Assembly (NCBI GenBank): GCA_035288465.1
Contig: DATEAH010000005.1
Span: 67,636-131,635 of the forward strand
DNA length: 64,000 nt
Source of the DNA: Patescibacteria group bacterium
GTDB lineage: Bacteria; Patescibacteriota; UBA1384; DATEAH01
Reading direction: 5' to 3'
Shown here piece by piece: positions 7,247-52,931 of this stretch. Under the pieces are notes generated by a model that was not told where the DNA came from, did no database searches, and saw nothing but the letters and a program-made list of their open reading frames with translations. The position numbers were made by a program, and so were the translations under genes. The number at the start of each line of letters is the position of its first letter. Positions within the stretch are counted from its first letter, which is position 1.

Positions 7247-7783
7247 TCAACCTTTGCCAAGAGTTTTTTGGCCAGGTTTCCAGCCAGCCGGACTCATTTC
7301 GCCGGTTTGTAGGGCTTTGAGAACTCGCAAAATTTCGGTCACACTTCTGCCAACATTATTATCGGAAACTAAAATATAACGAATGATTCCTTTGGGATCA
7401 ATGATAAAAGTGCCTCTTGAGGAAATTCCGGAGGCTAAATCTATTTCATATTTTTGAATGGCTTCTTTGTTGATATCTGATAAGAGCGGGAATTTTATAT
7501 CGCCTAGTTGTCTTGACCATTCCTGATGGGCATAAACGCTGTCGACACTGACTCCTAAAATTTCCGTGTGGCTATCTGCGAATTCCTGATATTTTTTATT
7601 CAGAGCGATAATTTCCGTCGGACAGACAAAACTAAAATCCAAGGGATAAAAAAAGAGAATTACCCACTTTTTACGATAATCTTTTAAGTTGTATTTCTTG
7701 ATATGGTTGGCTTTGAAACCTTCAAGAATAATATTGGGGGCTTTTTGACCAAGTTTAATCATTTTTTTCCTTTCTTTTGCCAC
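7247..7783 (-). CDS. peroxiredoxin (AhpC/TSA family)
   Basis: 178 aa; FFYPLDFSFVCPTE peroxidatic-cysteine motif. Confidence 0.9.
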   Translation of the reverse strand: MAKERKKMIKLGQKAPNIILEGFKANHIKKYNLKDYRKKWVILFFYPLDFSFVCPTEIIALNKKYQEFADSHTEILGVSVDSVYAHQEWSRQLGDIKFPLLSDINKEAIQKYEIDLASGISSRGTFIIDPKGIIRYILVSDNNVGRSVTEILRVLKALQTGEMSPAGWKPGQKTLGKG

Positions 7784-7797
7784 GAGATGGCGAAGTA

Positions 7798-7990
7798 TGG
7801 CTGAGCCATTTTTCGTGGCTCCGGGACAGGGATTCGAAGGGCTAAAGCCCGTCTCAACGCAGTCGTGGTATTTTTATTTCACGATTTGTGTAATAATTTC
7901 AGCATAAATAATTTTGTGGTTTGCGCAACGGGGTTCTCGCCAGATCACGGACAACTCAAAATCTTCCTATAAAACTGAAAAATTTTGAGT
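7798..7990 (-). mobile_element. putative miniature tRNA-linked element A (between tRNA-Gln and peroxiredoxin gene)
   Basis: Contains terminator-like hairpin, gaacccNNNgcg block, AT-rich block, conserved hairpin gggctttagccc (7839-7850) and a 23-nt duplicate of the tRNA-Gln 3' end (7816-7838). Confidence 0.4.
7816..7838 (-). repeat. duplicate of tRNA-Gln 3' end (T-loop to CCA), 1 mismatch
   Basis: ttcgaatccctgtcccggagcca vs tRNA tccgaatccctatcccggagcca at 7991-8013; lacks T-stem 5' strand so not a tRNA. Confidence 0.85.
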
Positions 7991-8064
7991 TGGCTCCGGG
8001 ATAGGGATTCGGACCCCAATTTTCAGGACCAAAACCTGACGTCCTGCCATTAGACGATCCCGGA
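7991..8064 (-). tRNA. tRNA-Gln (anticodon TTG), CCA encoded
   Basis: Hand-folded cloverleaf: acceptor tccggga/tcccgga, D-stem gtct/ggac, anticodon stem tcagg/cctga, loop ttTTGgt, T-arm tgggg-tccgaat-cccta. Confidence 0.85.
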
Positions 8065-9544: not shown

Positions 9545-9573
9545 AGCCTAATTTTACCAAATAAAGCCTATTT
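9545..9573 (-). promoter_or_regulatory. sigma70-like promoter TTGACA-17-TAAAAT for rnpB (inside uvrA 3' end)
   Basis: TTGACAaaataggctttatttggTAAAAT, -10 ends about 5-7 nt before P1. Confidence 0.55.
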
Positions 9574-25094: not shown

Positions 25095-25166
25095 GGGCCT
25101 GTAGCTCAGTGGTAGAGCATCTGCCTCTTAAGCAGAGTGTCGAGGGTTCGATCCCCTCCAGGCCCT
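25095..25166 (+). tRNA. tRNA-Lys (anticodon CTT)
   Basis: acceptor gggcctg/caggccc, anticodon stem tctgc/gcaga, loop ctCTTaa, T-arm gaggg-ttcgatc-ccctc. Confidence 0.85.
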
Positions 25167-25259
25167 TTTCCGGAAAGAAAACTCTTTTGAGGTTTTTTTC
25201 GGAAAATGGCTTGTGGTGGTAAGAACCCACAGGCGATAAATAAACAATTGAGTAAAAAG

Positions 25260-25288
25260 TTGATATTTTAGCAAAGACTTAATATAAA
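25260..25288 (+). promoter_or_regulatory. sigma70-like promoter TTGATA-17-TATAAA inside element C
   Basis: ttgatattttagcaaagacttaatataaa; 30-nt block nearly identical to element B (47338-47366). Confidence 0.45.
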
Positions 25289-25323
25289 TCAAAATGTTGT
25301 TGCATCGGGACGGGGTTTACCCC

Positions 25324-25343
25324 TTCGATCCCCTCCAGGCCCT
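25324..25343 (+). repeat. exact duplicate of tRNA-Lys 3' end (T-loop to discriminator)
   Basis: ttcgatcccctccaggccct identical to 25147-25166. Confidence 0.9.
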
Positions 25344-25437
25344 ATAATCAAAAGCGCTCTTTTTGAGAGGTTTGCGATTATTGCTTGGAAGATGCGAGAA
25401 GCCGTTAGCGGCAAGGTAAAAACCAAAAATAAGGTAG

Positions 25438-28888: not shown

Positions 28889-28996
28889 CTCCTTGAGATA
28901 TGATTCTGGGACTGAAAATATTATATCAGAAAGTTTGATAAAATCAAAGATAAGGCATAAAAATGCCTCTTCTTCTTTATATCTTAAGGTCTAAGA

Positions 28997-41603: not shown

Positions 41604-41698
41604 CGCATCCCCTTTGTAATTTGATTATACCACAAATTATACTAAAAATAAAAAAGAGGCGATAGGCAATTCCGGCGGAAAATAATTTCCAACTAGAA

Positions 41699-46301: not shown

Positions 46302-46646
46302 TTAAAAACCATTTGGCAATAAAATCCAGATAAATCTATTATACCCAAGGACTGCTGATAATACAATTAGAAGTCCGGCTTCGACAATAACTACTCCCCA
46401 CAACCAAGTACGATTTTCTAATTTTTTATAATAGATTAAAGAAAGCATCACAAAAATTGTTAAACTGCCGACCAGCATGAGTGAACCCATTGTCATATCA
46501 AAGGTTTTGGGGCTTGCGATCCAAGTGGCTTGTGGATTTCTGATTTTAGCGTATTCATATTCCAAAAAACTGCTACCGAGCCAAAAAAATCCTGCTGCCA
46601 AGATTAAAAGTAATAAATTATTTAGATGTTTGATGTTTTTTTTCAT
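46302..46646 (-). CDS. membrane protein
   Basis: 114 aa, 3-4 TM helices. Confidence 0.5.
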   Translation of the reverse strand: MKKNIKHLNNLLLLILAAGFFWLGSSFLEYEYAKIRNPQATWIASPKTFDMTMGSLMLVGSLTIFVMLSLIYYKKLENRTWLWGVVIVEAGLLIVLSAVLGYNRFIWILLPNGF

Positions 46647-47266
46647 TTATTTGATACTTCTTTTATCACCCCATATTTGGCAATTTTTTGATGATTTCTT
46701 TCTGCCCACCAAATATCACCATATGACCAATGCCAATACTCACTTGGATAATTTGATAAACCAGCCTTAGCCAATGCTGTAAACATTATTTTCCGATTAT
46801 TTTGAAGATACACCGGCAATTTAGATTGAATGGATTTGGCATTTTCTTGATAAGATAATTTTGAGCTTTTCATCGGTACTTTTCGGTCATTCTTCCACAA
46901 CCTCAAATCTACGGCTCCACCAGTCATATGGCCGGAGGCATATTTGCCATCAGCGGGGGCAACATATTTTTCAACTTCTTTGATAATTCTTTTTTCTGAC
47001 CATTTGGGATATTTTTTAGTAAATTTACAGATAAAGTCTTTAAAAATTTTTCTTTGAACATATTGTGGCCGCCACGCATCACCAATAATAAAGGTCATTC
47101 CGTTTGGTAAAAATTTTTCTGCTTTTTGCAACATTTTAGCAACAGTTTTTCTTAAATATGCGGTTTTTTCTTTTTTCATTCTTGAAGCATCTAAATCAAT
47201 CACAAAATTAGGACATAATTTTTTAAGATTAACCAAAGGCTCATTTGATTCAATAATTTTTATCAT
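46643..47266 (-). CDS. D-Ala-D-Ala dipeptidase (VanX-like, peptidase M15)
   Basis: DAWRP, SGHMTGGAVDL, EYWHW motifs of VanX family. Confidence 0.8.
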   Translation of the reverse strand: MIKIIESNEPLVNLKKLCPNFVIDLDASRMKKEKTAYLRKTVAKMLQKAEKFLPNGMTFIIGDAWRPQYVQRKIFKDFICKFTKKYPKWSEKRIIKEVEKYVAPADGKYASGHMTGGAVDLRLWKNDRKVPMKSSKLSYQENAKSIQSKLPVYLQNNRKIMFTALAKAGLSNYPSEYWHWSYGDIWWAERNHQKIAKYGVIKEVSNK

Positions 47267-47282
47267 TAGGGTAATAACTTCT

Positions 47283-47450
47283 AGTGGGTAACGAGAGTCG
47301 AAGGGCTGAAGCCCGTCTCAACGCAATTGAATTAAAATTTATTTAATGTTTTTGCTAAAATATCACGTTGATTTTAATAAGTGACTAACGCTTCGGGTTC
47401 GACACACTTACTTATTTCTTTTTGCCGTTTTTAGACGGTACAAAGAAATA
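47283..47450 (-). mobile_element. putative miniature tRNA-linked element B (downstream of tRNA-Trp, upstream of vanX-like gene)
   Basis: Terminator-like hairpin, gaacccgaagcg block, promoter-like block, conserved hairpin gggcttcagccc, 20-nt duplicate of tRNA-Trp 3' end (47283-47302, 2 mismatches). Confidence 0.4.
47338..47366 (-). promoter_or_regulatory. sigma70-like promoter GTGATA-17-AATAAA inside element B
   Basis: Minus-strand gtgatattttagcaaaaacattaaataaa; would transcribe hairpin + tRNA-end copy + vanX-like gene. Confidence 0.4.
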
Positions 47451-47522
47451 AGCGGGTAACGGGAGTCGAACCCGTGTCTTCAGCTTGGAAAGCTGACATA
47501 ATAACCACTATACGATACCCGC
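47451..47522 (-). tRNA. tRNA-Trp (anticodon CCA), no encoded CCA end
   Basis: acceptor gcgggta/tacccgc, anticodon stem cagct/agctg, loop ttCCAag, T-arm acggg-ttcgact-cccgt. Confidence 0.85.
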
Positions 47523-52872: not shown

Positions 52873-52931
52873 CAATTTAAAAAGCGGGATACCGGGATCG
52901 AACTGGCGCCTCCACCTTACCTGCCCGCCAT
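52873..52931 (-). repeat. degenerate tandem copy of tRNA-Gly 3' half immediately downstream of tRNA-Gly
   Basis: gtggaggcgccagttcgatcccggtatcccgct vs tRNA-Gly aagaggtcgccggttcgaatccggtctaccgct; preceded by GGCGCC palindrome; cannot fold into full cloverleaf. Confidence 0.7.

Follow-up and report, generated by a model that had tools for sequence, protein, structure and literature searches.

We found that a promoter-like block shared by two tRNA-linked elements of a Patescibacteria genome is a conserved part of certain non-coding units located at tRNA 3' ends, which form a small, lineage-specific family. The family has at least three copies in the window (the whole 64-kb stretch of DNA analysed here), situated 3' of tRNA-Lys(ctt), tRNA-Gly(tcc) and tRNA-Gln(ttg) and referred to below as the Lys, Gly and Gln units. 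We interpret the units, tentatively, as miniature or relic tRNA-integrating elements with an inward-facing promoter, that is, one predicted to read back toward the tRNA.

Anatomy of the three units

An earlier note had described the block as a 30-nt stretch common to a Trp-linked and a Lys-linked element, with a hairpin and a tRNA-end copy adjoining it. The block is indeed present at both loci: TGATATTTTAGCAAA occurs exactly twice in the window, within a 68-nt match of 75% identity (E = 4e-9, BLAST), and the 14-mer GATATTTTAGCAAA has exact matches in the 64-kb window only at the Gly and Lys sites. The two 29-mers compared agree at 25 of 29 positions, and as this agreement lies within the 68-nt BLAST match, the similarity of the Gly and Lys blocks is not due to chance. 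The adjoining hairpin and tRNA-end copy are likewise present. Two details required correction: the Lys block had been placed at 25261-25290, one base away from its actual position (Table 1), and the supposed tRNA-Trp is tRNA-Gly(tcc), tRNA-Trp being absent from the 11 tRNAs found in the window with ARAGORN and Rfam. Both tRNA-Gly(tcc) and tRNA-Lys(ctt) are the last genes of a pair (tRNA-Pro/tRNA-Gly and tRNA-Arg/tRNA-Lys, respectively), and neither encodes CCA.

We searched the window with the terminal 20 bases of each of its 11 tRNAs; for three of them, the 3' end recurs on the same strand, 168-177 bp downstream. The third of these is tRNA-Gln, where the unit is related to the other two and the block is only partly conserved. 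The repeat periods of the three units, calculated from the coordinates, are 177, 168 and 175 bp, giving a unit of ~170 bases in which a duplicated tRNA tail of 15-21 nt is separated from the tRNA by ~150 nt of inserted DNA. Tail copies begin in the T-loop and end exactly at the last encoded tRNA base; CCA is found in the tail copy only at tRNA-Gln, the sole gene of the three to encode it.

In a three-way alignment the units share the same order of parts: the tRNA, a ~40-nt A/T-rich hairpin, a GAACCC...GCG box, an A/T-rich stretch with the block, a core, and the tail copy. The long hairpins are non-homologous among the three units. The GAACCC box is common to all three and lies, in the Gly unit, within an inverted copy of the tRNA 3' end (47392..47409). 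Pairwise BLAST shows robust homology over a ~70-nt module that extends from the block through the core; in addition to the Lys/Gly match given above, the Gly and Gln units match over 72 nt (75%, E = 3e-8) and the Lys and Gln units over 34 nt (E = 0.004). A 28-nt core, TGCrTyGrGACGGGnTTnAnCCCTTCGA, directly abuts the tRNA 3'-end copy in each unit, and its 20-nt inner pattern has three matches in the window compared with 0.18 expected from shuffles. Because the block is only partly conserved in the Gln unit, it is the core, and not the block, that is the best-conserved feature of the family. The view that these are related units and not random scars is thus upheld by three copies with a ~70-nt module and a 28-nt core, each fused to the 3' end of its cognate tRNA.

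A profile search found no copies of the unit in the window beyond these three, and no further tRNAs or units are present in the ~8-9 kb beyond each window end. The start codon of an M15 peptidase gene lies 16 nt past the tail copy of the Gly unit, and that of ahpC ~50 nt past the tail copy of the Gln unit; the gene downstream of the Lys unit is convergent.

Table 1. Features of the three tRNA-linked units, with their positions in the window
Unit	Feature	Position	Strand	Basis
Gly	tRNA-Gly(tcc)	47451..47522	-	ARAGORN; Rfam tRNA, 67.3 bits
Gly	Hairpin, A/T-rich, terminator-like, starting at the last two tRNA bases	47411..47452	-	sequence; RNAfold
Gly	Inverted degenerate copy of tRNA-Gly T-arm and acceptor 3' strand, GTAAGTGTGTCGAACCCG	47392..47409	-	alignment, shuffles
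Gly	30-nt block of the earlier note, GTGATATTTTAGCAAAAACATTAAATAAAT	47366->47337	-	sequence
Gly	Extended -10, TGCTAAAAT	47353..47361	+ (antisense to tRNA)	promoter scan; motif census
Gly	Core, TTGCGTTGAGACGGGCTTCAGCCCTTCGA	47298..47326	-	pattern, alignment, fold
Gly	Inner palindrome, GGGC-TTCA-GCCC	47303-47314	-	sequence
Gly	Copy of tRNA-Gly 3' end, T-loop to discriminator, identity to own tRNA 18/20	47283..47302	-	tail search
Lys	tRNA-Lys(ctt)	25095..25166	+	ARAGORN; Rfam
Lys	Hairpin, A/T-rich, terminator-like	25166..25206	+	sequence; RNAfold
Lys	Promoter-like block, TTGATATTTTAGCAAAGACTTAATATAAATC	25260..25291	+	sequence
Lys	Block of the earlier note, TGATATTTTAGCAAAGACTTAATATAAATC	25262-25291	+	sequence
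Lys	Extended -10, TGCTAAAAT	25265..25273	- (antisense to tRNA)	promoter scan; motif census
Lys	Core, TTGCATCGGGACGGGGTTTACCCCTTCGA	25300..25328	+	pattern, alignment, fold
Lys	Inner palindrome, GGGG-TTTA-CCCC	25312-25323	+	sequence
Lys	Exact 20-nt copy of tRNA-Lys 3' end, identity to own tRNA 20/20	25324..25343	+	tail search
Gln	tRNA-Gln(ttg), CCA encoded	7991..8064	-	ARAGORN; Rfam
Gln	Hairpin, A/T-rich, terminator-like	7954..7990	-	sequence; RNAfold
Gln	Diverged extended -10, TGTAATAAT (TG-T-AATAAT)	7889..7897	+ (antisense)	alignment, sequence
Gln	Core, CTGCGTTGAGACGGGCTTTAGCCCTTCGA	7834..7862	-	pattern, alignment
Gln	Inner palindrome	7839-7850	-	sequence
Gln	Copy of tRNA-Gln 3' end including CCA, identity to own tRNA 19/20	7816..7835	-	tail search

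Direction of the predicted promoter and folding of the core

The earlier note had read the block as a promoter on the tRNA strand, with a -35 element, a 17-nt spacer and a -10 hexamer, directed outward. The hexamers TATAAA and AATAAA proposed there as -10 elements, like a further candidate on the tRNA strand, AAATAA, all lack the conserved final T, and a consensus scan called no sigma-70 promoter on this strand in the Lys, Gly or Gln unit. The same scan called a promoter antisense to the tRNA in the Gly unit (TTAAAA, 18-nt spacer, TAAAAT) and in the Lys unit (TTGATT, 16-nt spacer, TAAAAT, 25292->25265), both with a TG extension; it made no antisense call in the Gln unit, though TGTAATAAT sits there at the block-homologous position. 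Read on the opposite strand, the block is TTTGCTAAAAT, an extended -10 motif that marks promoters throughout this genome, and the perfectly conserved 15-mer is TT-TG-C-TAAAAT-ATCA, which is an extended -10 with its immediate flanks. An outward orientation would instead place the conservation on the -35 element and the spacer, which would be unusual.

A census of TGNTAWAAT gave 40 matches in the window, of which 17 fall in the 13% that is non-coding, a strong enrichment. Of these 17 intergenic matches, 13 are followed by a gene, tRNA or RNase P RNA on the same strand at a distance of 10-136 nt (the features concerned include RNase P RNA, tRNA-Arg, tRNA-Thr and tRNA-Asp); the Lys-unit and Gly-unit copies belong to the small remainder of "orphans". 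Given the odd placement of conservation in the outward orientation, the poor -10 hexamers on the tRNA strand and the predictive value of the antisense extended -10 in this genome, the predicted promoter of the unit most likely reads toward the tRNA and not outward. From such an inward promoter, no more than a short transcript terminated at the shared hairpin, or an antisense RNA, would be expected.

RNAalifold, applied to the three core sequences, gave an extended hairpin, rTyGrG-AC-GGGn-TTnA-nCCC-TTCGA, with a 2-nt bulge and two covarying pairs; one exchange in the inner stem, G:C to C:G, is fully compensatory, and the changes in the outer stem are wobble-compatible. The 32-nt hairpin segments have ordinary fold energies (z from -0.7 to -2.0) and no consistent strand preference, and a strand-specific stable RNA hairpin was dropped because the energies are ordinary. 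As judged from three sequences, only the 12-nt palindrome GGGn-TTnA-nCCC is solid, and a site bound by a protein in duplex DNA would explain it equally well. Whole-unit folds computed with RNAfold differ among the three copies. We also rejected a tRNA-like cloverleaf or acceptor stem closing the unit, as 5'-acceptor-like 7-mers pair at 6/7, 5/7 and 6/7 positions but the minimum-free-energy folds disagree. No Rfam family covers the units at the gathering threshold, and matches up to E = 10 are at chance level.

Distribution, neighbourhood and origin of the module

Ten contigs of the same species from other samples are identical over a 454-nt interval that runs from just upstream of tRNA-Pro into the M15 gene, except for one substitution in one contig. 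As all 10 strain contigs carry the unit, there is no presence/absence polymorphism within the species, which occurs, for instance, in the metagenomes ERZ27254864 and JGI 3300025313. A syntenic relative (L146) was found via a glycosyltransferase gene (70% identity); its orthologous proteins have 57-70% identity to those of the window. Its tRNA-Pro is identical to that of the window and is accompanied by a tRNA-Gly(tcc), 29 nt beyond which comes an ortholog (57% identity) of the gene at 46302-46646 in the window; L146 lacks at this locus both the unit and the M15 peptidase gene, which together make up the ~800-bp difference between the two. The unit is therefore not a fixed feature of the tRNA-Gly locus in this clade; L146 is not a clean empty site, however, since M15 is missing as well and the relative is distant (57-70% protein identity). 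Relatives reached via the M15 peptidase and AhpC are not syntenic.

Searches of genomes, metagenomes, viral contigs and phages found no copies of the unit outside this species. A 22-base core pattern, scanned against metagenomes with partial coverage that missed same-species JGI contigs in which the pattern is present, returned only the Gln locus of the same organism. A scan of genome contigs with the short GC-rich GACGGGNTTNANCCCTTCGA gave 120 matches, nearly all in high-GC genomes and none with the extended core; we rejected these as unit copies and regard them as chance matches, many of them being one conserved Rhodobacteraceae coding motif. Four scans of viral contigs, with the core and with three core-plus-tail junctions, found no copy, and a BLAST search of phage records with the Gly unit gave chance matches only.

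tRNA-like fragments of other kinds were also observed in this clade. In a further relative (L122), a different, 82-nt insert lies downstream of tRNA-Pro(cgg) and is followed by a degenerate tail copy, of the 3' half of tRNA-Pro. The window itself contains an internally deleted tRNA-Gly-like fragment at 52883-52929, the acceptor strands of which match tRNA-Gly(ccc) of L146 and not this genome's own tRNA-Gly(ccc). tRNA fragments are evidently common in this lineage, and tRNA gene fragments from integrating elements are a documented class (PMC9897764).

Pfam scans of open reading frames and the gene tables of overlapping loci indicate that the window encodes ordinary housekeeping and cell-envelope functions. 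Neither recombinase genes (tyrosine or serine) nor transposase genes were found (Pfam, gene tables) in the 64-kb window or in the ~8-9 kb past each end, and neither the window nor these extensions contain cas, tnpB, iscB or Tn7-like/tns genes or a repeat array. The sole mobile-element gene seen is an IS200-like Y1_Tnp gene, located ~18 kb beyond the left window end (L145, 18408-19055). We rejected a link between the units and this Y1 transposase, and with it an assignment to REP/RAYT or IS200/IS605-derived hairpin elements, as GGGN-TTNA-NCCC is missing from its flanks, where the inverted repeats are all A/T-rich.

In sequence, the core is similar to tRNA-Gly(tcc) over its variable loop and T-stem, with GAAGACACGGGTTCGAC in the tRNA and TTGAGACGGG[CTTCAGCC]CTTCGAC in the unit. 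The inverted copy of the tRNA-Gly 3' end, just past the hairpin of the Gly unit, is significant (P < 0.0005, 2000 shuffles), and the corresponding test gave no significance for the Lys and Gln units (P = 0.15 and P = 0.39). Terminal inverted repeats are similarly significant in the Gly unit alone (P = 0.004 and P < 0.0005) and not in the Lys or Gln unit; we accordingly give less weight to terminal inverted repeats, or to a palindrome spanning the whole module, as a general feature of the family. These sequence likenesses suggest that the module may have arisen at a tRNA-Gly locus, its copies at the other two loci being joined to the tail of the tRNA found there. An origin by reverse transcription from mature tRNA was discarded, as the Lys and Gly tail copies lack CCA.

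Interpretation of the units

In its arrangement, each unit carries the signature of site-specific integration into the tRNA T-loop region, from which we infer the following mechanism. The tRNA would have been kept intact by an insertion that placed new DNA behind it and left its 3' part, from the T-loop to the last encoded base, repeated at the far side. The units would be non-autonomous integrated elements, or uniform relics of such elements, each keeping a replacement tRNA 3' end with a terminator-like hairpin and an extended -10 promoter (TTTGCTAAAAT) predicted to fire back toward the tRNA. The conserved 28-nt end, whose 12-nt palindrome abuts the presumed crossover point in TTCGA, would be the recombinase-binding end, and an enzyme supplied in trans would mobilise the units. 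In tRNA-integrating elements, such as lambda-type phages and islands, the integrase promoter usually faces the tRNA/att site. The 0-2 substitutions in the distal tails would weaken pairing in a tRNA, and these tails therefore fit displaced originals that are no longer under selection.

Taken together, the cognate tail repeat, the uniform size, the drifting distal copy, the conserved end, the att-facing promoter and the absence from L146 lend tentative support to integration. Against it, no recombinase gene was found in the window or the ~8-9 kb past each end, the species shows no presence/absence polymorphism among the 10 strain contigs, and viral contigs yielded no copy; the ~45 nt adjoining the tRNA are non-homologous among the units, whereas in a mobile element one would expect conservation at both ends; the bases of the distal repeat to the left of TTCGA (AGCCC/ACCCC) are not the complement of the T-stem 3' strand, and there is no inverted core-type half-site; and the insert is small, with no integrase gene inside or adjoining it. 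How a matching tail is acquired at each new tRNA has no explanation within the integration model.

The same promoter motif would be put to a different use if the units were a functional host feature and not a mobile scar, which we think unlikely but worth weighing seriously. The extended -10 would then drive an ~85-95-nt transcript through the GGGTTC box, stopping at the hairpin shared with the tRNA, and the product would act as a small antisense RNA, or its transcription would, by interference, keep that of the tRNA operon from running on into the downstream gene. The orientation of the motif and its value as a predictor of promoters in the genome agree with this, as do the conservation peak exactly on TT-TG-C-TAAAAT-ATCA, the CGC-N3-4-GGGTTC common to all three putative transcripts, and hairpins whose A-rich and T-rich arms could terminate in both directions. 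However, these transcripts share little beyond the short box and no common fold, there is no Rfam match and no unit after tRNA-Gly(tcc) in L146, and the tRNA-end copy and the highly conserved core, which would both lie upstream of the promoter, are left unexplained. The outward promoter of the earlier note (TTGATA/GTGATA, 17 nt, TATAAA/AATAAA) is distinctly unlikely. It would start an RNA 8-20 nt upstream of the hairpin, yielding either a small RNA composed of the hairpin and a tRNA 3'-end mimic or a 5' leader for the M15 peptidase or AhpC gene. The -35-like hexamers and their spacing are present, the consensus fold is a hairpin with two covarying pairs, and the Gly and Gln units have a same-strand gene close past the tail (16 nt and ~50 nt) with no other recognisable promoter between that gene and the tRNA. 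The -10 elements nevertheless lack the final T, the tRNA strand has no scan call in any unit (0/3), the Gln unit lacks the -35/spacer block, and the hairpin is of unremarkable stability (z from -0.7 to -2.0) with no consistent strand preference; in the Lys unit, such a promoter would have nothing to drive because the downstream gene is convergent.

If no dedicated recombinase were involved, the units could be decayed partial tRNA duplicates, rearranged and homogenised among loci by gene conversion. This is quite improbable: three different tRNAs decaying independently cannot end up with a 70-nt module in common and, within it, a near-invariant 28-nt core; the constant length of the units points to a defined element; and the inverted-copy signal that is significant in the Gly unit is missing from the Lys and Gln units, even though that signal, the likeness of the core to the tRNA-Gly(tcc) variable loop and T-stem, the separate fragment at 52883-52929 and the degenerate tRNA-Pro copy in L122 would all sit well with such decay. 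We also consider it very improbable that the units are functional, not scars, with the bulged hairpin presenting T-loop sequence together with the 15-21-nt mimic of the cognate tRNA 3' end, either as a small RNA or as a folded single strand; variants of this reading could be an attC-like single-stranded site for tRNA T-loops, or a guide or decoy RNA for the tRNA gene or for enzymes acting on tRNA ends. Type V-K CRISPR-associated transposons use a short tRNA-targeting crRNA as a homing guide, and the geometry here, a hairpin followed by a variable segment that matches its target ~170 bp away, recalls a guide-RNA-like gene in which the scaffold and the 15-21-nt segment would direct an RNA-guided protein in homing or self-targeting. 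That proposal is extremely unlikely, given that cas, tnpB, iscB and Tn7-like genes and a repeat array are all missing from the window and its extensions and that the promoter evidence favours the other strand; self and target would also be indistinguishable, because the same TTCGA precedes both the "guide" and its target.

We compared the units, preferred here as miniature or relic tRNA-integrating elements, with three known systems. They resemble the att scars of tyrosine recombinases that integrate at tRNAs (islands, prophages, Prochlorococcus tycheposons and CIMEs) in that the 3' segment of an intact tRNA recurs downstream as a direct repeat, the identity block runs from the T-loop to the gene end, the distal copy gathers substitutions, and the inserted DNA gives the tRNA a new 3' flank toward which a predicted promoter near the att site points. 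Unlike such scars, they have only ~150 nt between the repeats, with no integrase gene there or nearby; three different tRNAs have a homologous right end and non-homologous left parts; a T-stem-like half-site, expected next to the crossover point, is replaced there by the 12-nt palindrome; and the 10 strain contigs give no evidence of excision or an empty site within the species. Promoter-bearing MITE-like repeats such as the Correia elements of Neisseria are likewise short (~100-170 bp), non-coding, multi-copy and A/T-rich inside, carry a predicted sigma-70-type promoter near genes whose expression could be affected, and are partly palindromic, as is clearest in the Gly unit. Yet terminal inverted repeats are statistically supported in only one of our three units, there is no short target-site duplication but only the 15-21-nt tRNA tail, a ~40-nt hairpin away from the left part of the module, and the units are strictly tied to tRNA 3' ends with a cognate 20-nt repeat. 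We found no similarity of the units to any described MITE-like family. By analogy with integron attC sites and ORF-less cassettes, a conserved imperfect hairpin with a 2-nt bulge may be said to lie directly at a recombination-like junction, and the units adjoin non-coding DNA with a predicted promoter and single genes that appear to vary in location (M15, AhpC); but there is no intI, attI, cassette array or R/L box consensus, and the stability of the fold is nothing out of the ordinary. The likeness to IS ends or integron Pc drawn in the earlier note is likewise no more than an analogy.

We are thus inclined, with due reserve, to see the units as a new form of a known phenomenon, the traces of integration at tRNA 3' ends. 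For annotation, they account for 3' fragments of tRNAs that might otherwise be taken for pseudo-tRNAs or for the att sites of large islands. Should the functional-RNA or recombination-site reading be true, the units would represent a previously undescribed tRNA-coupled system in Patescibacteria. If they are miniature tRNA-integrating elements, the streamlined genomes of Patescibacteria would carry a compact family of mobile or relic elements that remodels tRNA 3' flanks, places orphan promoters there and adjoins genes that change location (the M15 peptidase and possibly AhpC).

Genes adjoining the units

The peptidase gene that adjoins the Gly unit (one of the related ~170-bp repeats lying 3' of tRNA-Lys, tRNA-Gly(tcc) and tRNA-Gln, each ending in a tail copy of the cognate tRNA 3' end) looks as though it has changed place. 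It is absent at the syntenic site in a relative (L146 13035-13139), its context differs in each relative examined, and its final ~25 nt in the window overlap a region homologous to the short intergenic spacer of L146.

In two relatives, A/T-rich segments ~110-170 nt long were observed upstream of the M15 homologs (L122 4310-4500 and L139 3905-4045). Inverted repeats of 11-15 nt border the segments (CCGAGTATGCG/CGCATACTCGG and GCGTGTATGAG/CTCATACACGC). An extended -10-like motif occurs in one segment or both, and neither segment shows sequence similarity to the window units.

The AhpC gene has no close relative, its best non-self match being 66% identical. The next-best matches span planctomycete anammox bacteria, Gracilibacteria and a nanoarchaeon; this scatter over several phyla suggests that the gene was horizontally acquired. 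Beyond the left window end, a run of small ORFs, together with a LexA-methyltransferase fusion and a NucS-like nuclease, precedes the Y1 transposase gene, and a DUF433/DUF5615 pair follows it; the region around this gene may be an integrated element.

Coordinates and strands of the features discussed
Feature	Location	Strand	Remarks
M15 (VanX-like) peptidase gene	window 46643-47266	minus	adjoins Gly unit
tRNA-like fragment, 47 nt (GGCGGGCAGGTAAGGTGGAGGCGCCAGTTCGATCCCGGTATCCCGCT)	window 52883-52929	minus	between tRNA-Gly(ccc) and tRNA-Thr
AhpC peroxiredoxin gene	window 7247-7762	minus	downstream of Gln unit
IS200-like Y1 transposase gene, 215 aa	L145 18408-19055		~18 kb beyond left window end
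tRNA-Pro(cgg) with downstream 3'-end copy	L122 1860-1975	minus	related Patescibacteria MAG GCA_041642995.1
TGNTAWAAT, example sites	window 9551-9559, 25001-9, 52847-55, 54374-82		
TGNTAWAAT, intergenic	window 28936-28944	plus	no nearby same-strand gene
TGNTAWAAT, intergenic	window 41624-41632	minus	no nearby same-strand gene

Partial and duplicated tRNA sequences

The sequence past the Lys tail copy (window 25346-25380, …GCGCTCTTTTTGAGAGGTTTG) is similar to the terminator that follows tRNA-Lys itself (25167-25200, …AAAACTCTTTTGAGGTTTTTTT), and the duplication at this locus may reach past the tRNA end. No similarity between post-tail sequence and tRNA terminator was found at the Gly and Gln loci.

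The tRNA-like fragment retains the acceptor strands and T-arm of a tRNA; the D arm and anticodon arm are missing. Its acceptor 3' strand, TATCCCGCT, matches that of the L146 tRNA-Gly(ccc) and not that of the adjoining functional tRNA-Gly(ccc); the comparison suggests a decayed remnant of an old gene that has since been replaced. In L122, the 3'-end copy of tRNA-Pro(cgg) is 15/16 identical and lies 82 nt past the tRNA, and within those 82 nt is a degenerate duplicate of this tRNA's 3' half, split by ~33 nt. This arrangement is analogous to the window units as a phenomenon but unrelated to them in sequence.

The extended -10 motif

Across the whole window, the dominant recognisable promoter signal of this organism's genome is the extended -10 motif TGNTAWAAT, which precedes RNase P RNA and also several of the tRNAs by 10-25 nt and mostly comes with no good -35. 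Two more intergenic copies, those at 28936-28944 and 41624-41632 that lack a nearby same-strand gene, may mark unannotated small transcripts.
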